Shown one piece after another: positions 7,957-25,799 of a DNA stretch of 26,263 bases. The translations under genes and the position numbers were made by a program. The notes under the pieces were generated by a model that made no database searches, was not told where the DNA came from, and worked only from the letters and a program-made list of their open reading frames with translations. Source of the DNA: Candidatus Thorarchaeota archaeon (GTDB lineage: Archaea; Asgardarchaeota; Thorarchaeia; Thorarchaeales; Thorarchaeaceae); the NCBI GenBank assembly GCA_048882485.1, contig JBHLRP010000047.1, positions 1-26,263 of the forward strand. Reading direction: 5' to 3'. Position 1 is the stretch's first letter; each line of letters opens with the position of its first letter.

Positions 7957-8418
7957 ATGTCACAGTCGAAACCCAAGCAGCGGAAGGTAAGGAAATGGTT
8001 AATGCCTCAAGAAGTGGAAGTCTGGTATATTCTCCCTGCAATAAGAAGAGAGCTTGCCAAGGTGATGAAGTTTGAGAGAGGACAAGCTCAGAAGACCATT
8101 GCTCGCATGCTTGGAGTGACAGAGCCTGCTGTAACCCAATATATGCTCAGCAAGAAGGACAAGCCTAAACGATCACGAGGCGATCAGGTGGACATTCCTG
8201 AGAGTCTAAAGCCGGAGCTTCTAAAGACAGCAGATAAAATGATTGAAGCTTGGAGCAAAACGAGCCCAAGCGACCCAAGTGATCACGCCTATGAAACTAC
8301 AACTAGAGAGATAAATCACCTCATTGAGGTCCTGCGAGATGATGGAGCCCTATGCGACATCCACAGAGAGCACTGTGAAGGTGTCCATATGGACTGCAAT
8401 GCTTGCAATACGGAGTAA
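7957..8418 (+). CDS. Archaeal HTH transcriptional regulator (COG2522-like) with C-terminal Cys/His metal site
   Basis: PQEVEVWYILPAIRRELA, QKTIARMLGVTEPAVTQY HTH, C-terminal CDIH...C...H..CxxC. ATG 7957 follows GAGGGTGA. Confidence 0.85.
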   Translation: MSQSKPKQRKVRKWLMPQEVEVWYILPAIRRELAKVMKFERGQAQKTIARMLGVTEPAVTQYMLSKKDKPKRSRGDQVDIPESLKPELLKTADKMIEAWSKTSPSDPSDHAYETTTREINHLIEVLRDDGALCDIHREHCEGVHMDCNACNTE

Positions 8419-8425
8419 GATAGGT

Positions 8426-9637
8426 GTGGCCTATTTTGACAACGCTAATTCTACTCAGGTAGATGAACGCGTGATTGAAGCAATGCTCCCCTATTTCAGG
8501 GAGTATTATGGAACAGCCGGCCTTGAACTCAGTCATTCGAGGGATGTCGCAGCACTTACTGGACTCGAGAACGCAAGGAAGATAGTAGCAGACTCGCTCA
8601 ATGCAGATCCAAGAGCGATAGTGTTTACTTCAGGCTCTACGGAGTCAAACAATCTCGCAATTCGAGGGACTGCAATTGCCAATAAGAAGAGGGGCAAACA
8701 CATCATAACAACGCCTATCGAGCACCAGTCAGTGATGGAATCCTGCCAGAGGCTTTCCAATGCAGGGTATGACATCTCTTATCTCAGTGTTGATAAATAT
8801 GGACTCATAGATATTAATGAGCTTCTAAGCACGATTAGAAATGACACTCAGCTAATATCTGTTCAACATGCAAACGGAGAGATTGGAACTCTGCAGCCTA
8901 TCGACGAGATAGCAAAGATAGCTGCAGAGAAAGACATTATGTTTCACACTGATGCAACTCATACCTTTCTCAAAGTGCCCATTGATACAGAAACCAATCC
9001 TGTCAATCTTATCACACTCGACGGACATCACATTCATGCGCCAATGGGAATTGGCGCGTTGTTCATCAGGAGAAAGACTCGAATCACCAGAGTGATGGAA
9101 GGTGGTGATGAGGAACGCCGCCTTAGACCTGGGGTGGAGAATATTCCAGCAGCGGTAGGACTAGGAAAAGCCATTGAGGTTTGGGGTGAAAATGACAACG
9201 AGTACCTTCTATCGCTCCGTCAGCATATGGAAGAGAGAATTTCAGAGAGCCTGACTGGTTTCAAGATAACAGGGCATCCGGCAAGTCGAGTTCCACACAT
9301 ATTCAGCATGGTCATTGAGATGATAGAAGGCGAAGCCATGCTTGTTCATCTTGATATGGAGGGATTCGCTGTTTCCACAGGATCTGCCTGCTCATCAAAG
9401 ACATTGACTGGCAGCCACGTGCTTAAGGCAATAGGACTTCCTCCTGAGATATCGCATGGTTCATTGAGAGCATCCTTCTCAAGGTTCAACACTAAGGAGG
9501 AGATTTACGACTTCGTTGAAGCCCTTGTACCAGTTGTTGAACGGCTAAGGGAGTTCAGCCCACTCAGAACTGGAGGGTATTTTGCAGACGCTGAGGAGAA
9601 TGACCATCACCATGATGTACCAGAGGATGACTGGTGA
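8426..9637 (+). CDS. iscS: IscS/NifS cysteine desulfurase homolog with the PLP lysine replaced by His
   Basis: YFDNANST, FTSGSTESNN, EHQSV, NGEIGTLQP, HTDA, STGSACSS (catalytic Cys), HGSLRASF. GTG at 8426 follows the regulator stop at 8418. Confidence 0.9.
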   Translation: MAYFDNANSTQVDERVIEAMLPYFREYYGTAGLELSHSRDVAALTGLENARKIVADSLNADPRAIVFTSGSTESNNLAIRGTAIANKKRGKHIITTPIEHQSVMESCQRLSNAGYDISYLSVDKYGLIDINELLSTIRNDTQLISVQHANGEIGTLQPIDEIAKIAAEKDIMFHTDATHTFLKVPIDTETNPVNLITLDGHHIHAPMGIGALFIRRKTRITRVMEGGDEERRLRPGVENIPAAVGLGKAIEVWGENDNEYLLSLRQHMEERISESLTGFKITGHPASRVPHIFSMVIEMIEGEAMLVHLDMEGFAVSTGSACSSKTLTGSHVLKAIGLPPEISHGSLRASFSRFNTKEEIYDFVEALVPVVERLREFSPLRTGGYFADAEENDHHHDVPEDDW

Positions 9638-9779: not shown

Positions 9780-10043
9780 TTGTCAGAAAAGAAACGAAGA
9801 ATAGCACAAATAGTGAGAGATGTCATCTACGGTATGGCATTTCATGGCATGGCAAGATATGCTCTAAAGACACGGATGTACCTTGAAAACCTGTTTATGA
9901 TTTTAACACACGGTGATATGCTAGGTATACCGATTCTTCCTCCCTATTATTCATTAAAGCTCCTGCCTTATGCGGTTCCTAATATCAGAAATTGGCAGCG
10001 ATCACTGTTCAAGGAACGTGACTTCACAGACGCGCTATATTGA
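9780..10043 (+). CDS. Small CstA/ArsA-associated protein, paralog of 15058..15345
   Basis: TTG start after GGTGAGG; 60/71 residues identical to 15058..15345 over the core. Confidence 0.88.
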   Translation: MSEKKRRIAQIVRDVIYGMAFHGMARYALKTRMYLENLFMILTHGDMLGIPILPPYYSLKLLPYAVPNIRNWQRSLFKERDFTDALY

Positions 10044-10790: not shown

Positions 10791-11339
10791 CTATCGGTCG
10801 AAGAAGACACTCTTTCCAGTTGCAGACAGCGGAATGCAAAGAATAATTGGACAGTCAGGCATCAATTTCATCTTGTGAGCTGCAGCACCAGCTCGATAGA
10901 AAATTCGGTTATCCACATTGTGAATCTGTGCCGTCTTGACTGCGCTCCCCAATGCAATACCGAGGTCAAGCGCCTTAATTGTGCAGATGGGTCCCACATA
11001 TGCTGCTCCTTTCTTCTGCTCAGCTTTTGAGAAATCAGAACAGGTTTCATGACCGCAAGCGCCACAGTTGACTCCCACGGACTTGAAGCCCTTCAGTCCC
11101 AGAAGAACAAGTGCCGATGATTGCTCCACGTTTATTGCATCTCGAATATAATGCTCTCCGTATTTTTCCGCCATTCCCCTCATCTCTTTAGCAATCTCGT
11201 CTTTCTCCTTTCCAGTAAGAATAGCGGTTTCAATGTCATCTTTGCCTGCGGCCTTGGGAGCAGTCCTGGCCGCGAGAAGCATAAGACGTGCTACATCAAT
11301 TACTGCCTTGCTCTCTTCATCCAAGCCTGAGATACGCAT
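10791..11339 (-). CDS. DUF2148 / COG4739 ferredoxin-domain protein
   Basis: AARTAPK..G.D, NCGACG.ETC, C...ALDLGIALGSA, NVDNRIFY, IPLSATGKSVFFDR. Confidence 0.88.
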   Translation of the reverse strand: MRISGLDEESKAVIDVARLMLLAARTAPKAAGKDDIETAILTGKEKDEIAKEMRGMAEKYGEHYIRDAINVEQSSALVLLGLKGFKSVGVNCGACGHETCSDFSKAEQKKGAAYVGPICTIKALDLGIALGSAVKTAQIHNVDNRIFYRAGAAAHKMKLMPDCPIILCIPLSATGKSVFFDR

Positions 11340-12987: not shown

Positions 12988-13998
12988 TTATTCAGGATTG
13001 AAAGTTAGCATGTCCTGACAGAACCTCTCAATGCCCTCCACACCTGCCACTTCAGAGGGGTATAGAGGCACATATGCGTTGACCATATCTCCGAGCTGCT
13101 CGCTAATCATATCCATATATCTAGTCTGCTGAAGATAGCTGTTCTTCATGTAATCAGTCGCATCTTCATCAGCGGCCTTTTTCGGAATGATTCTATTTAC
13201 AAACACTCCTCCTACCGGTATATCGAAAGCTTGCACCATCTTGATGAACCGTTGCACAACAGCAATTGGAAGCGCTAGCGGAATCGTCACAAATACGAAT
13301 GCAGTCCTCTCAACATCACTAAGTATCTCTTTTGCCCGCTGATTCTTCTGGTGTTGACGCAAGAGGTCGCCCAGCATGGGATCACTCTTCACCTCTTCCG
13401 CAATCTTATCCTTTCTGAAAGAGAGCTGCACTCGAAGGGATAGAGCCTCCTTTCTGCTTTCAATCATACGACTGAGCCAAAGGTCGTAGATTTTACTGAG
13501 ACCAAGTAGCCGAATAGCATTAGCCACTGCGGCGCAGTCAAAGACAACCACATCATATTGATCGCCTTGTTCAAGCATAATGTCGGTCATGGTGTCAAAT
13601 TGAGCAGATTCCTCAAAAGCTGGATTTGTGACGGCAATCTCAATAAATGCCTCAGGATTCACCGGAATATCAGCCCACTTGAGAAATGAAGTGATACGTT
13701 CTGTGAGCTGGTTTCGATATGTCGCCATCTTCTGTGTGATATCAACCTCAACACCCCACAAGTTCTCCGCTCCTTCAATCTTTCGGATGCCGCGTCCCCA
13801 GATGTCTTGACCATATAGAGTAGATAGTGAATGCACTGGATTCAAAGACGCAAGGAGCGTCTTTTTCCCCTTAGAAACAAAGTACTGGGCAATCGCCGCT
13901 GCACTAACAGTCTTTCCTACGCCACCTTTGCCACCGGTAAAGAAGAACTTGATATTCGGATGTTGCTTCACAAATTCCTCCCACTTTGATTCAGCCAT
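12988..13998 (-). CDS. ArsA/Get3 (TRC40) family ATPase, degenerate copy
   Basis: GGKGGVGKT deviant Walker A; SLNPVHSLS (Switch I, D->N); DCAAVANAIR (Switch II variant); VFVNR. Confidence 0.9.
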   Translation of the reverse strand: MAESKWEEFVKQHPNIKFFFTGGKGGVGKTVSAAAIAQYFVSKGKKTLLASLNPVHSLSTLYGQDIWGRGIRKIEGAENLWGVEVDITQKMATYRNQLTERITSFLKWADIPVNPEAFIEIAVTNPAFEESAQFDTMTDIMLEQGDQYDVVVFDCAAVANAIRLLGLSKIYDLWLSRMIESRKEALSLRVQLSFRKDKIAEEVKSDPMLGDLLRQHQKNQRAKEILSDVERTAFVFVTIPLALPIAVVQRFIKMVQAFDIPVGGVFVNRIIPKKAADEDATDYMKNSYLQQTRYMDMISEQLGDMVNAYVPLYPSEVAGVEGIERFCQDMLTFNPE

Positions 13999-14002
13999 TC
14001 TT

Positions 14003-15010
14003 CTAATCCTCCGTTATCTTTCCGTCCCAATTCATCATCACATCAGCGACTTTGCCAATCATCTCGAGTCCCTTTGGCTCTCTATCAAACATCGGGATTA
14101 CTGCGCACACACGCTTGCCTAGTTTCTCTTTGATCTCAACCATATACTTCTGCTGCATTTCGATGCGCTCACGAAGAAACTGACTCAGATCATCCCGCTT
14201 AAGCAGCTCTTTTGGATACACTTGATTGATAATGACGCCAGTTAGTGTGATGTCCATTTGCTCAAACATTTTCAACGCACGTTCGGTATCTAGAATTGAC
14301 ATCTTTTCAGGAGTGACAACCATATAGAACGCGGTTTTTTTGGCATCAGTAAGAATATCCTGGAAGAAGCTTAGCTTCTTCCGAATCTCTATTAATTCAG
14401 CAAGCATCTCGTCTTGCCCGGCGGCAGAAGTTCTTTGTTGCATCTGCCAAGCTGACTCGCCATATTCTTGCGCTTTCTTTCGCGTTTCTTCCATCTTCTC
14501 TACCCAGATATCTAGTATTCGAGCCATTGATACAATTCGAATGCCATGACCAAAAGGGGGCATATCAAAGACATGAAAACTATATTCATCAGAGGCGAGC
14601 AATCCAGCCATCGCATCATAAGTGGCGGATTCGTGCATAGCTGGCTCAGCCCCTGCCGCATTTATGTATTCATCAATCTCCTTGGGAATCTCATCAATGC
14701 CATACATGTCCTTGATTTGCTGTCGAATCTCTTCCTGAAAGGCGGCTATACGCTTGTCTGCGTCAATTTCCATTACGTGCAAATTCTCGGCTAGAGTAAC
14801 AGAACCCTTTCCAAAAACATCTTTCTCAAAAATGTCAGATAATGATGCTTGGGGGTCTGTACTAAAGCAAAGGATTCGTTGTCTCTTCTTTGCAAGCCAA
14901 GACGCCAATGCGGCACTGCATGTGGTTTTGCCCAAACCTCCCTTTCCAGCAAAGACCGCGATCTTTAGGTCCGGATTAGATTCGAAGAAGCTACTCATCT
15001 TTGTGGCCAA
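14003..15010 (-). CDS. ArsA/Get3 (TRC40) family ATPase, near-canonical copy
   Basis: AGKGGLGKTT, STDPQASLSD, MEIDA, DMPPFGHGIR, VVTPEKMSILDTER, IINQ; TTG start. Confidence 0.92.
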   Translation of the reverse strand: MATKMSSFFESNPDLKIAVFAGKGGLGKTTCSAALASWLAKKRQRILCFSTDPQASLSDIFEKDVFGKGSVTLAENLHVMEIDADKRIAAFQEEIRQQIKDMYGIDEIPKEIDEYINAAGAEPAMHESATYDAMAGLLASDEYSFHVFDMPPFGHGIRIVSMARILDIWVEKMEETRKKAQEYGESAWQMQQRTSAAGQDEMLAELIEIRKKLSFFQDILTDAKKTAFYMVVTPEKMSILDTERALKMFEQMDITLTGVIINQVYPKELLKRDDLSQFLRERIEMQQKYMVEIKEKLGKRVCAVIPMFDREPKGLEMIGKVADVMMNWDGKITED

Positions 15011-15057: not shown

Positions 15058-15345
15058 TCAAAAGAGAGCGTCCGTGAAGTCACGTTCTTTGAACAGGGTT
15101 CGCTTCCAGGTCTTAATATTCGGCACAGCATATGGCAGAAGCTTAAGTGAGTAGTATGGAGGAAGGATGGGAATGCCTAGCATGTCGCCTAGTGTAATGA
15201 GCATGAAAAGCTGCTCTAGGTACATTCGTGTCTTCAAGGCATACCTAGCCATACCTTGCATCGCCATACCATAGAAGAAGTCCTTCACGGCGCCTTTTGC
15301 GCCGCGACCCTGTTCAGATTCCTCGACATCCTTATCGGCGTTCAT
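15058..15345 (-). CDS. Small CstA/ArsA-associated protein (type B)
   Basis: GDMLGIPILPPYYSLKLLPY...W.R.LFKERD motif shared with the other three paralogs. Confidence 0.88.
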   Translation of the reverse strand: MNADKDVEESEQGRGAKGAVKDFFYGMAMQGMARYALKTRMYLEQLFMLITLGDMLGIPILPPYYSLKLLPYAVPNIKTWKRTLFKERDFTDALF

Positions 15346-18064: not shown

Positions 18065-18685
18065 CTATAGAAGGTCATCTTCGTACGATTCTATGTCGTG
18101 TCCATGACACAAAAGAGAGTTCAATGAAGAAATCAGCACATTGGACTCTTCAATAATCAGCTCAGGAATAGGAGAATTCCAAATGACCTTTATGAGTCGA
18201 GAAGTTTCGTCACATGGGACATAGCCTATCAGTTGCGCACTAAGACGTGGGGACCCAAAGAATCCGAAGCGAGGACGCATGGCAGTCCAGAGAATATAGC
18301 TGCCAACATGATCTCCACTATGCAATTCACCATGTTCCACTACTTCTCGACCTTTGTTGAAGTGTTGTTCAAGAAGTGTTTCCGGGCTCGGTGCAATTGG
18401 CGTGTCCTTCTTCAATTCCACGACAATCTTGGCTCTGAAATCAAGGTCAGGACGCTTCTCTGTGCCATGTCTTCGTGAAATAAGGCATTCAATTTCTCCG
18501 GAACCAACCCATACACGGTCCTTGTAAAGGAATCTATTGGTGACCAGTGGGTCATTCATTTGATATCCGGTCACCCAAGAAGCAGGTAGAAAGAGAAAGG
18601 CAAAAATGGCACGACCAAAAAGCATGTTCCAGGCTTCGACACAAACCTCGCGCATGTCATCTACCTGCTCGTCTGTTTTCATCAC
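18065..18685 (-). CDS. Hypothetical soluble protein with H...C..T.R...CH pattern, upstream of cstA
   Basis: 206-aa ORF co-oriented with cstA; GDHVG, VPCDETSR, LLCHGH. Start uncertain. Confidence 0.7.
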   Translation of the reverse strand: MMKTDEQVDDMREVCVEAWNMLFGRAIFAFLFLPASWVTGYQMNDPLVTNRFLYKDRVWVGSGEIECLISRRHGTEKRPDLDFRAKIVVELKKDTPIAPSPETLLEQHFNKGREVVEHGELHSGDHVGSYILWTAMRPRFGFFGSPRLSAQLIGYVPCDETSRLIKVIWNSPIPELIIEESNVLISSLNSLLCHGHDIESYEDDLL

Positions 18686-18791: not shown

Positions 18792-19487
18792 TTGGAGTAC
18801 GAACTCTTGCAGAACTTGGCTGAACAAGGCTATTTGGCCCTCTTTGGTGTGGCAATCTTCTTGATTGGGACGTGGATGATAGGACGTTGGAAAACATCAC
18901 AACTACGCAGTAGGATTTCACAGAATGTGGCAAATCGATTTGAAGCAACGACTTCCAAGGTGAGTGTCAGACTTCTTGGAAATACAGGAGCCAAATTCTC
19001 ATATCATCAGAAATCAAATAGTCCTCTGCCAAAACTCGAATCAACTATCCTATTGCTTGACAGGTCCAATATCTTCCATCTTGCATACTGCAAAATCCGT
19101 GGCCGAACCGACCAACTCCAAATACGGGCGAACCTAGGAAGACCTGCATCATTCAATCTCGAACTCGCAACTCAGAGAGAAAAGAAGAATCTGGAGGAGG
19201 TTTTGAAGCCCAAGATGGAAGGTGCTAGCGAGCTATTGATTGACAATCTGAGTGATCAGTTCTATGTTGTAGTATCCGATCTAGAAGCCGGTGAGCGTCT
19301 CTTTGAGAAGCAGGAGTTCCATGCGGATTTCAAAGCCATCGCGCCTTTCTTAACTCGCCTGTCCATTTCCAGAAAGGAACCGCATGTGTTCGCTTCTGTG
19401 GTTCTTGTTCCAGAATCCATGGCGCCCATTGAGAATTTCATCCTTTCCTTGGCCAAATCTATCAAGCGTAGAAAGAAGTCACAATAG
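18792..19487 (+). CDS. N-terminally anchored membrane protein, possible CCDC47/DUF1682-like
   Basis: One TM (GYLALFGVAIFLIGTWMI), then IGRWKTSQL...LLLDRSNIF...RGRTDQLQIRANL; basic C-terminus. Confidence is for the CDS; the family call is tentative. Confidence 0.75.
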   Translation: MEYELLQNLAEQGYLALFGVAIFLIGTWMIGRWKTSQLRSRISQNVANRFEATTSKVSVRLLGNTGAKFSYHQKSNSPLPKLESTILLLDRSNIFHLAYCKIRGRTDQLQIRANLGRPASFNLELATQREKKNLEEVLKPKMEGASELLIDNLSDQFYVVVSDLEAGERLFEKQEFHADFKAIAPFLTRLSISRKEPHVFASVVLVPESMAPIENFILSLAKSIKRRKKSQ

Positions 19488-19700
19488 GTCCCTATTTGAA
19501 AACAGCCAGCTGAATTGCAATATCTCCTTGAGCTCTGCTTGTAATTCATAAATGATCCAAAACCACTGCTGAATTCCTGAGTCAGAGAACGTTCTTCGAT
19601 TCCGAGAAATAAAGGAACTGGGCATAACTCATGTCAACTGATTGTTGCCTGATAGTAAACAATATACGCAAATCATAGCCTCCTATTAGAGGTGCTTAAA

Positions 19701-20069
19701 GTGTACAGCGACAAGGTGATGGAGGAGTTCAAGAATCCGCAGAACATGGGCAAGATGGAGAATCCTGATGGAGTGGGAACTGTCGGGAACCCAGTCTGCG
19801 GGGACATGCTCCGTATGTATATTAAAGTCGAGGATGGAAGAATCGCTGATGCCAAAATCGAAACCTTCGGCTGCGTCGCAGCTATTGCCACATCATCAGT
19901 CACTACACAGATGGCAATAGGGATGACGCTTGAAGAAGCCAAGGAATTAACGAGGAAGGAAGTCGCTGATGCGTTGGATGGATTGCCTCCTCAGAAGATG
20001 CATTGCAGCAACCTTGCCGCTGACGCACTCCACAAAGCAATTGAAGACTATGAAAGCAAAAAATCCTAG
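19701..20069 (+). CDS. iscU: Fe-S cluster assembly scaffold IscU/NifU-N
   Basis: YSDKVM..F.NP.N.G, GNPVCGD, FGC, LPPQKMHCSNLA. GTG at 19701 follows GAGGTG. Confidence 0.96.
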   Translation: MYSDKVMEEFKNPQNMGKMENPDGVGTVGNPVCGDMLRMYIKVEDGRIADAKIETFGCVAAIATSSVTTQMAIGMTLEEAKELTRKEVADALDGLPPQKMHCSNLAADALHKAIEDYESKKS

Positions 20070-23741: not shown

Positions 23742-25799
23742 CTAGAAACCGACTAGATCTATGAACTCATCTTCGCTGAGAATTTCAATGCCAAGCTTCT
23801 TTGCCTTCTCAAGCTTTGAGCCTGCGCCAGGACCTGCTACAACGTAGATCGTATTCTTGGACACGCTTGAGGAAGTCTTCGCACCAAGACTCTCGACTAA
23901 TTCCTTTGCTTTCCTTCTATCCATTTTCTCCAAAGCCCCAGTAAATACGAACGTACTACCAGCTAGAGTCTGAGCAGCTTCTTCAAGATCTGTCTTCTTT
24001 CCTAAGCCCGCCTCAATCAAGTCCTTAACCATACTTCTCGTATCTTCATATTCAAAGTACTCTACAATACTTCTGGCAATTTCAGGCCCAATTGTATCAA
24101 GTCTTAGCAGGTCGCTTTCAGTTGCAGAAATCAGATCCCTAACAGACTCGAAGCTGTAGGCAAGAATCTTCGCTGTCTGTTCTCCAACATTTGGTATCCC
24201 AAGTGCAAAGATGAATCGGTTTAGAGGAAGGCTCTTTGAGGCTTCAATCTGTTCAAGAATCTTGAGGGCAAGACGCTCTCCAAATCGCTCCAAGCCCAAC
24301 AGGTCATCAATATTCAGTGTATAGAGAGAATGAAGACTTGTCACAATCCCAGCATCAACGAGCTGGTCTACACGTTTCGACCCAAGTCCCTCTATATCCA
24401 TGCCACTGCGAGATGCAAAATGCTTGATGCTTCTTCGTAGCTGAGCAGGACAATTGAAGTTTGGACACTGAGCCAACTTCTTATCATTGCTCATATGGAT
24501 TGGAGAGTTGCAGACAGGGCATATCAATGGCATGTCAAACACTCTTTCAGAACCATCTCTTGAGTCAAGAACTGGACGCTCAACCTGTGGTATAACATCA
24601 CCAGCTCGAACAACAATGACAGTATCGCCAATTCGGATGTCTTTACGTTCAATCTCACTCTGATTATGGAGTGATGCTCTGCTGACTGTGACTCCACCTA
24701 TGTTAACGGGATCAAGTTCAGCTACTGGTGTGAGTCGGCCAGTTCTTCCTACCTGTACGGTAATATCGAGCAGCTTGGTTGTTGCCGCCCTCGGTTTGAA
24801 TTTGTAGGCAATAGCCCATCGAGGGTCTCTAGCTCTGAAACCCATTTTTTCTTGATTCGACTTGGAGTTGACTTTGAAGACTACTCCATCTATTTCAAAG
24901 GCCAGATCATCTCTTTTGTCTTCGAGTTCACGATGATACTCTAGAAGCTCATCAAAACCTCGGCAGAGTCGAGAGAGTTCGAGCTGAGTTGGGAGACCCC
25001 ATTTCGGGAGAGATTCCAACACCTGCCATTGCGTATCAAAAGCTCGTCCTTCAGATTCCATCACGTCGTAGATGTATATCCGGAGTGGTCTGCTGGCTGT
25101 GATCTTGGGATCCAGTTGCCTTATAGACCCAGCTGCCGCGTTGCGCGGATTGGCGAAGGTTGGCTCGTCAGAAGCCTCGCGTTGGACATTCAATTTCTCA
25201 AAATCCTCAAGCCCCATATACACCTCACCACGAACTATTAGGCGAGATGGAATACCATCATCATCGTCATCCAGCAGGACAAGGGGTAGTTCCCGAATTG
25301 TCTTCACGTTCGCAGTAACATTCTCGCCGGTCTGACTATCGCCCCTGGTAGATGCAACTATCAATGACCCATTCTCATAGATTAGTTCAACCGCAAGACC
25401 GTCAAATTTGGGCTCCGCAACATACTCAATGATCCTGGCGCCCAATTCACCTTGGCATCTAGCATCGAATTTTCGAACCACAGATTCTTCATAGACTGTC
25501 TGAAGGCTAAGCATAGGAATTGCGTGTTCGATTGTCCCCAATTCTGAAAGCGGCTCTCCGCCGACCTTTTGCGTTGGCGAGTCAAAACTACTGAGCTCCG
25601 GGAATCTCTCCTCAAGAGCTATCAAATTCAATAACAGTGAATCATACTCTGAGTCATCAATCACTGGTGAATCAAGAATATAGTATCTATAATTGTGATA
25701 CCTGATTGCTTTTGATAATCTACTGATAGCATGTTTGGCCTTTTTCTTGGAGGTGATTTTGTCCACATCAATGTCAGGTTTAAGATCATCTTCTGTCAT
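23742..25799 (-). CDS. ligA: NAD-dependent DNA ligase
   Basis: YHNYRYY..D.P.I.D.EYD, EPKFDG, STRGD..GENVT, RGEVYM, FANPRNAAAGS.RQLD, IDGVVFK, PRWAIAYKF, Cys4 zinc finger, HhH, BRCT. Confidence 0.98.
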   Translation of the reverse strand: MTEDDLKPDIDVDKITSKKKAKHAISRLSKAIRYHNYRYYILDSPVIDDSEYDSLLLNLIALEERFPELSSFDSPTQKVGGEPLSELGTIEHAIPMLSLQTVYEESVVRKFDARCQGELGARIIEYVAEPKFDGLAVELIYENGSLIVASTRGDSQTGENVTANVKTIRELPLVLLDDDDDGIPSRLIVRGEVYMGLEDFEKLNVQREASDEPTFANPRNAAAGSIRQLDPKITASRPLRIYIYDVMESEGRAFDTQWQVLESLPKWGLPTQLELSRLCRGFDELLEYHRELEDKRDDLAFEIDGVVFKVNSKSNQEKMGFRARDPRWAIAYKFKPRAATTKLLDITVQVGRTGRLTPVAELDPVNIGGVTVSRASLHNQSEIERKDIRIGDTVIVVRAGDVIPQVERPVLDSRDGSERVFDMPLICPVCNSPIHMSNDKKLAQCPNFNCPAQLRRSIKHFASRSGMDIEGLGSKRVDQLVDAGIVTSLHSLYTLNIDDLLGLERFGERLALKILEQIEASKSLPLNRFIFALGIPNVGEQTAKILAYSFESVRDLISATESDLLRLDTIGPEIARSIVEYFEYEDTRSMVKDLIEAGLGKKTDLEEAAQTLAGSTFVFTGALEKMDRRKAKELVESLGAKTSSSVSKNTIYVVAGPGAGSKLEKAKKLGIEILSEDEFIDLVGF

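Follow-up and report, generated by a model that had tools for sequence, protein, structure and literature searches.

Asymmetric active-site motifs in a tandem pair of Get3/ArsA-family ATPases next to the CstA-CstX genes of a Thorarchaeota archaeon

The tandem ATPase genes and their active-site motifs

Two adjacent genes for ATPases of the Get3/ArsA family, hereafter copy 1 and copy 2, were studied on contig JBHLRP010000047.1 (assembly GCA_048882485.1) of a Candidatus Thorarchaeota archaeon; the window, i.e., the whole stretch of DNA that was analyzed, covers 26,263 nucleotides (Table 1). The ATG of copy 2 lies 4 nucleotides past the stop codon of copy 1, and the two proteins are 30% identical over 332 residues, which corresponds to their full length. 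Both are full-length members of the Get3/ArsA/TRC40 superfamily, with family hidden Markov model (HMM) scores above the curated cut-offs: copy 1 and copy 2 reach 234.7 and 193.3 bits, respectively, for PF02374 (cut-off 24.3) and 221.6 and 210.9 bits for TIGR00345 (cut-off 135). Among solved structures, they come closest to archaeal Get3 (3UG6 and 3ZQ6), matched over the whole length with E-values of 1e-44 to 1e-53 (copy 1 to 3ZQ6, 1e-53; copy 2 to 3UG6, 1.5e-49). The closest homologs of the pair are found in Thorarchaeota, Hermodarchaeia and Promethearchaeota, and a scan of genome contigs with a single protein reached only close relatives in Thorarchaeota and Hermodarchaeota.

The deviant Walker A motif GKGGxGK[TS], with its N-terminal signature lysine (Lys), is present in both copies and reads AGKGGLGKT in its fuller form in copy 1. 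The Switch I aspartate (Asp) and the Switch II glycine-histidine (Gly-His) typical of the family are found in copy 1 only. When aligned with 3UG6 and 3ZQ6, the asparagine (Asn) 53 of copy 2 falls on the Asp of STDPAH and its AVAN on PTGH. In P-loop NTPases, the Switch II Gly touches the gamma-phosphate. The original prediction, made from the letters of the window alone, had quoted the motifs of both copies, including an intact GKGGVGKT in copy 2, and all of them were found in the open reading frames (ORFs). The Asn codon that it had placed at 13842-13840 was borne out by reading the DNA, where copy 2 runs TCT TTG AAT. As for the precedent invoked there, catalysis in yeast Get3 is carried out by D57, and the D57N variant binds ATP without hydrolysing it (PMC12506534).

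The prediction had further stated that neither copy carries the CxxC zinc clasp of Get3 or an obvious set of metalloid-binding cysteines (Cys) as in ArsA, and both absences hold. In an alignment with canonical Get3, the CxxC of the archaeal proteins corresponds to SQFL in copy 1 and to TDYM in copy 2, and no Cys column is invariant in the ortholog set of either copy. A third member of the family is encoded in the same genome on another contig (L010, 1486-2532, minus strand), and its motifs are canonical throughout (GGKGGVGKTS, STDPAHSLSD, DTAPTGHTLK and CVFC). As the genome thus holds a separate canonical Get3, the pair is best viewed as an extra, specialised system and not as the Get3 of this cell.

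Table 1. Features of the ATPase pair and of the adjacent CstA-CstX genes, with positions in the window.
Feature	Position	Strand	Basis or detail
Copy 1, Get3/ArsA-family ATPase, presumed catalytic subunit	14003-15010	-	ORF, 335 aa, TTG start
Copy 1 P-loop GKGGLGKT (G22-T29), signature Lys23	14924-14947	-	Deviant Walker A
Copy 1 Switch I STDPQASLSD, catalytic Asp52 at 14857-14855	14834-14863	-	
Copy 1 Switch II DMPPFGHGIR, Gly-His kept	14537-14566	-	
Copy 2, Get3/ArsA-family paralog, presumed ATP-binding and non-hydrolysing	12988-13998	-	ORF, 336 aa, ATG start
Copy 2 P-loop GGKGGVGKT (G22-T30), signature Lys24	13909-13935	-	
Copy 2 Switch I SLNPVHSLS, Asn53 in the catalytic Asp position	13822-13848	-	
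Copy 2 Switch II DCAAVANAIR, Gly to Ala and His to Asn	13510-13539	-	
Small protein of the CstX type, 95 aa, the subtype conserved universally and located immediately before copy 1	15058-15345	-	Synteny, conservation
CstX-like paralog, 86 aa	15411-15671	-	
CstX-like paralog, 86 aa	15795-16055	-	
CstA-family permease, 593 aa	16150-17931	-	PF02554, E 9.5e-100
Probable CstY, 206 aa, one N-terminal hydrophobic segment	18065-18685	-	Translation

Conservation, origin and the signature lysine

The conservation of copy 2 was followed in its 120 closest homologs, in 58 orthologs from 80 metagenome loci, in representatives chosen at 50% identity and in 117 intact bacterial orthologs. None of these more than 290 orthologs, from archaea and bacteria and down to about 40% identity, keeps the Switch I Asp; with few exceptions, Asn stands in its place. 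The 120 closest homologs (55-94% identity) belong to Thorarchaeota, Bathyarchaeia, Baldrarchaeia, Njordarchaeia, Thermofilum, Geothermarchaeota, Anaerolineae and Bacillota; their P-loop does not vary, and Switch I has the form SLNP[VI]HSL[ST] and Switch II the form D[CT]AAVANA[VIA]R. The metagenome orthologs carry S[LT]NP in 58 of 58 cases, down to 42% identity; the Switch II Gly is kept in none of the 58 and the His only in loci L022-L024 (DTAPVAHT), the variants elsewhere being DTAPTANARR or DTAAVANAVR. The bacterial proteins, from Burkholderiales, Casimicrobiaceae and relatives, have GGKGGVGKTV and STNPVHSL in all 117 intact orthologs, and among the 120 matches listed their Switch II is DTAPTANARR in 116 and DTAPAANARR in three, with one unmatched. 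At the Switch I position, even the divergent representatives have N, N, S, N, N and N, and never Asp. The alignment of orthologs that the original prediction had called for, in order to see whether the Asn and the AVAN are conserved, therefore came out in its favor, as Asp is present in no ortholog of copy 2 and the Gly is always replaced.

The changes thus extend from Asgard archaea, Bathyarchaeia, Baldrarchaeia, Thermofilum and Njordarchaeia to Anaerolineae, Bacillota and Burkholderiales, and their fixation over the whole copy 2 clade places the pattern far beyond chance. Copy 1 has kept its Asp in 64/64 metagenome orthologs and in 120/120 proteins of the bacterial search, and its orthologs display S[TV]DPQASL and D[ML]xPxGH throughout. 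In the alignment of copy 1 orthologs, D52, P53, Q54, A55, S56, G154 and H155 are invariant, and Lys23 is only nearly so; in copy 2, no variation is seen in the P-loop, N53, the Walker B D154 or N268. Column identity averages 61% for copy 2 vs. 63% for copy 1. Two divergent copy 2-like proteins among the representatives at 50% identity have decayed further: in P0137, the P-loop has become GGKSSVGNT, with loss of the Walker Lys and retention of the signature Lys, and in P0125 Switch I reads SLSTLH. ATP binding by copy 2 may be dispensable in such lineages.

A maximum-likelihood tree of 67 proteins comprised four groups, namely canonical Get3, the single ArsA homologs of CstA-CstX loci, copy 1 and copy 2. 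Copy 1 and copy 2 are each monophyletic (99 and 99) and are sisters of each other (joint node 99), and their inner branching agrees locus by locus. The single-ATPase relatives from CstA-CstX loci, which keep STDPAH and DTAPTGHT, form the outgroup of the pair. The simplest reading of this topology is that a homodimeric CstA-associated ATPase was duplicated once, a long time ago, and that the two products then underwent a one-sided loss of motifs and were inherited together. The linkage of both genes is strict: copy 1 precedes copy 2 in 40/40 loci where both are complete, with gaps of -11 to +119 nucleotides, and the pair invariably comes after cstA and one or two small CstX-type genes. No complete locus with one copy only was found among the loci compared, and those that seemed to hold a single copy were either cut by a contig end or broken by a frameshift.

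A few irregular gene models were met in the course of these comparisons. In one metagenome locus (L052, 4509-8969), cstA is in three pieces and copy 1 in two, which may represent a decaying copy or an assembly error. Two apparent fusions were discarded. P0278 (420 aa) was considered as a Rosetta-stone fusion of CstX and copy 1, but the match to CstX ends after the first 56 residues and gives way to unrelated sequence, which makes a gene call with a frameshift most likely; P0413 (587 aa) is a merged call that joins the C-terminus of copy 1 to copy 2. Two-domain ArsA-like proteins of 525-660 aa (P0136, P0145, P0150, P0162, P0173, P0168 and P0156) were also encountered, in which one half is degenerate, e.g., with SVNPAHS together with DMAAGAHA or DTAAGAH[AT], or with a second half that reads SINPSHS or SASPVHS. 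One-sided degeneration seems to have arisen independently in these other branches of the Get3/ArsA family.

In deviant-Walker-A ATPases such as MinD, NifH, ArsA and Get3, the signature Lys works in trans, on the nucleotide that the partner subunit binds. A heterodimer of copy 1 and copy 2 with one live site would therefore make the signature Lys of copy 2 indispensable and that of copy 1 dispensable, and both predictions hold. The Lys of copy 2 is invariant in 120/120 close homologs, 57/57 metagenome proteins and 117/117 intact bacterial orthologs, and it persists even in P0137. In a bacterial subclade, 61 of 117 copy 1 proteins carry Gly or Ala instead of their Lys (GGGGGVGKTT or GGAGGVGKTT), which requires at least three changes on the tree. 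The remainder of the catalytic set is untouched in these proteins: within the bacterial search set of copy 1 (P0271-P0390, 120 proteins), SVDPQASL is found in 120/120, the 61 Lys-less ones included, and DLVPLGHALY in 119/120. All 117 intact copy 2 partners of the same bacterial lineage retain their Lys, as do those of two metagenome loci with a Lys-less copy 1 (L046, 7984-8952; L050, 1913-2884). The role in trans that had been assigned to the Lys of copy 2 from the window alone has thus gained comparative support, and the whole pattern fits a putative heterodimer with one composite active site.

The CstA-CstX module and the proposed heterodimer

The gene order in the window is cstY-like, cstA, three cstX, copy 1 and copy 2, and the association of CstA with the ATPase pair is syntenic in about 40 other loci. 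The 95-aa CstX subtype stands directly upstream of copy 1 in nearly all of them. It matches the NCBIfam model CC_star_Cory weakly (E 2e-7, below the cut-off) and presents an invariant PPYYSL core, invariant W80, E87 and D89 and a conserved hydrophobic helix in archaea as well as in bacteria. The predicted complex of copy 1, copy 2, this CstX (15058-15345) and two ATP gave a median score of 0.51 for the CstX partner, and 0.45 when an unrelated protein replaced copy 2, which speaks neither for nor against binding of CstX. The 206-aa protein (18065-18685) has no Pfam or NCBIfam match; it is conserved among the loci of Thorarchaeota as well as in L016, L017, L020 and L035, and it fits the description of CstY as a protein of about 210 aa with a single transmembrane segment (TMS) (PMC2963123). 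No ars gene (arsB/acr3, arsR or arsD) was seen among the neighbors in the window, which are CstA, CstX and PanE.

Other genes around the module were also noted. A fourth CstX-like small gene without Pfam match is detached from the others, about 5 kb off and on the opposite strand (9780-10043, plus strand), and such an inverted CstX-like ORF beyond panE is also present in the related loci L001, L002 and L008. A protein of 231 aa (18792-19487, plus strand) flanks cstA along with the 206-aa protein; both are conserved, and weak homologs of both occur beside the module in non-Asgard metagenome loci, e.g., L016, L017, L023 and L028. Genes related to iron-sulphur (Fe-S) clusters surround the module, namely a class-V aminotransferase/IscS-like gene (8324-9637, plus strand), a NifU-N/IscU-like gene (19692-20069, plus strand) and a gene for a DUF2148 ferredoxin-domain protein (10791-11339, minus strand). 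At 23742-25799 (minus strand), the window encodes a complete NAD-dependent DNA ligase of the LigA type, with adenylation, OB, zinc-finger, HhH and BRCT domains. A ligase of this bacterial type is unusual in an archaeon and could stem from horizontal transfer.

The module was present in 14 of 201 sampled Asgard genomes (6 of the 85 high-quality ones) and also occurs in bacteria. It represents an accessory module and not an Asgard or eukaryote-related trait; its patchy distribution in Asgard archaea and its presence in bacteria imply that it should not be taken for a precursor of the eukaryotic GET pathway.

We consider it likely that the pair forms an asymmetric heterodimer of the Get3/ArsA type, which would serve as the ATPase component of the conserved CstA-CstX-(CstY) membrane module. 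Copy 1 carries the sole complete catalytic set, with P-loop, Switch I Asp52 and Switch II Gly-His, and copy 2 would be unable to activate water (Asp to Asn) or to sense the gamma-phosphate (Gly-His to Ala-Asn). Given its intact P-loop and its adenine-contacting Asn268, copy 2 probably still binds ATP, and its Lys24 would cross the dimer interface to complete the site of copy 1. The ATPase cycle would thus run on one site, the nucleotide of copy 2 serving as a permanent "glue" or latch, and it may be coupled to the CstA permease, probably through the small CstX proteins, so as to energise or gate it in the way that ArsA acts on ArsB. This reading is built on the motifs, their clade-wide fixation, the origin by a single duplication, the strict co-occurrence and gene order and the reciprocal retention and loss of Lys, from which we infer that the two proteins physically form a heterodimer, that copy 2 binds ATP but does not hydrolyse it and that the pair is coupled to CstA and CstX.

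Several points weigh against this heterodimer. Both its obligate nature and its single active site are deduced from sequence, and the coupling to CstA and CstX draws on synteny and on published co-evolution. The loss of Lys in copy 1 is confined to one bacterial subclade, where only about three events are needed to account for it. Finally, the further decay of P0125 and P0137 indicates that ATP binding by copy 2 may not be universal. More tentatively still, and with less than even confidence, the pair might be pictured as a single-site motor in which copy 2 is permanently latched by ATP and which docks via CstX on CstA, turning this secondary carrier into an ATP-driven or ATP-gated transporter for organic acids or peptides; it would then be the first natural half-dead heterodimer of the Get3/ArsA family.

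The heterodimer could also act as a Get3-like chaperone or targeting factor that delivers the hydrophobic CstX or assists the assembly of CstA, a proposal that differs from the transport-coupled ATPase only in the output of the cycle and that we regard as rather unlikely. The archaeal Get3 proteins being the closest solved relatives, the conserved hydrophobic helix of CstX and the lack of arsenic genes nearby would all suit such a role. However, the extreme conservation of CstX in archaea and bacteria (PPYYSL, W80, E87) is more that of a structural subunit than of a client, so that an ArsAB-like ATPase seated on a carrier appears preferable to Get3-like targeting. The CxxC clasp is absent, a canonical Get3 already exists in the genome and the single-ATPase relatives fill the same role with CstA and CstX. 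The methionine (Met) fraction of the helical subdomain, 0.04-0.06 in the pair vs. 0.08-0.09 in canonical Get3, i.e., about half, is a signal in the same direction but too weak to tell whether the pair has a groove for clients; the overall hydrophobicity of this subdomain is similar in the pair and in canonical Get3.

That the two copies form separate homodimers, with an active copy 1 and a copy 2 that binds ATP without hydrolysing it and serves as a sensor or scaffold, would agree with the usual state of Get3-family proteins and with the P-loop kept by both copies in this genome. This is nonetheless improbable, as a copy 1 homodimer deprived of its signature Lys would be crippled, and yet the 61 of 117 proteins of the bacterial subclade that have lost this residue, which a homodimer needs in trans, still keep Asp and Gly-His, while their copy 2 partners all keep Lys. 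The strict co-occurrence, the fixed gene order and the matching trees also speak against it. Still less probable is that both sites are active, copy 2 hydrolysing ATP by means of another residue or of one supplied by CstX or CstA. The invariant P-loop, Walker B Asp154 and Asn268 of copy 2 do indicate that nucleotide binding matters, but the exchange of Asp for Asn at the equivalent position of Get3 abolishes hydrolysis (PMC12506534), the Switch II Gly-His is lost in addition and the Lys that would act in trans on the site of copy 2 is dispensable in many lineages. As for lineage drift, a sequencing error or a decaying pseudogene, they are practically ruled out by the fixation of the changes in every copy 2 ortholog and by a constraint on copy 2 equal to that on copy 1.

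The symmetric dimer of Get3 and the pseudo-symmetric one of ArsA are textbook examples with two competent sites. The asymmetric heterodimer that we favor matters in this respect, for many phyla have fixed, in one subunit only, the very Asp to Asn change by which Get3 is locked in its ATP state in laboratory work. If the more tentative picture of a motor docked on CstA is true, it would show a symmetric SIMIBI dimer evolving into an asymmetric machine, and an ArsAB-like architecture for the uptake of organic acids or peptides that extends across archaea and bacteria. The CstA module is widespread; a motor with one working site would narrow the possible ways in which ATP is coupled to the permease, and the reciprocal pattern of the signature Lys yields precise and cheap mutant predictions.

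Comparison with known systems

The gene cluster and the tandem pairs within it are already known (Castillo and Saier, 2010; PMC2963123). These authors described the operon of cstA, cstX, optional cstY and an arsA homolog (clusters 14-18), counted 26 CstA-ArsA associations, reported that CstA, CstX and the ArsA homologs co-evolve, and found adjacent pairs of ArsA homologs ("cluster 15") with 31% and 25% identity in Pyrobaculum arsenaticum and Symbiobacterium thermophilum. By their account, Thermococcus kodakarensis has the form with a single ATPase. They proposed that the ATPase energises CstA and that CstX is a linker, and they remarked that the Asp of SxD "can be substituted only by N", without drawing any asymmetry from it (PMC2963123). 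The present locus agrees with theirs in cstA, a cstX of about 90 aa, a single-TMS cstY of about 210 aa in archaea, single-domain ArsA homologs of about 330 aa and the lack of ars genes, and its two adjacent paralogs, 30% identical, fall within the range of about 25-31% of "cluster 15". It differs from those clusters by three tandem CstX paralogs and a detached fourth, and the earlier study included no catalytic/degenerate split, no heterodimer and no analysis of Switch II or of the signature Lys (PMC2963123). The catalytic asymmetry, its universality and the reciprocal Lys pattern were not found in the literature searched, which covered Get3/ArsA proteins with CstA, archaeal heterodimers and Asgard archaea.

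With Get3/TRC40 the pair shares the full-length fold family, the deviant Walker A with its signature Lys, Switch I and II and the Asn of the A-loop, and copy 2 appears as a natural equivalent of the hydrolysis-dead D57N variant of yeast Get3. In Get3, two identical subunits make a symmetric dimer that has two active sites and a CxxC zinc clasp and handles tail-anchored proteins, whereas the pair consists of two unlike subunits, one of them presumably dead, lacks CxxC, stands in a CstA permease context and has a canonical Get3 of its own elsewhere in the genome.

Another instance of two adjacent single-domain Get3/ArsA-like genes is mycobacterial BagA/BagB (Rv3679/Rv3680), the products of which were reported to interact, as cited in PMC10597346. 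The pair does not belong to the same family, with 49.0 and 46.8 bits for the BagA NCBIfam model (cut-off 400) and 31.0 and 29.7 bits for that of BagB (cut-off 521). We know of no CstA or CstX context for BagA/BagB.

Heterodimeric ABC exporters combine one consensus site with one nucleotide-binding site that does not hydrolyse. Their logic would be the same, with a duplication, a dead site that still binds nucleotide and residues provided in trans, but they belong to the ABC fold class and the pair to the SIMIBI/deviant Walker A class, so that this is an analogy only.

ArsA retains the Switch I Asp and DTAPTGH in each of its halves, and a Cys triad binds the metalloid. The pair falls short of the ArsA equivalog models, with 98 and 93 bits for TIGR04291 (cut-off 650) and 127 and 115 bits for NF041417 (cut-off 800), and it also differs from ArsA in that the halves of the latter are fused into a protein of about 580 aa, whereas copy 1 and copy 2 are separate single-domain genes, one of them degenerate, without conserved Cys and without ars context. 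Nevertheless, ArsA (E. coli R773, 1F48), a pseudo-heterodimer in which two Get3-like halves differ from each other and which sits on the secondary carrier ArsB and makes it ATP-driven, appears to offer the best mechanistic analogy for a heterodimer of copy 1 and copy 2 that would act on CstA.

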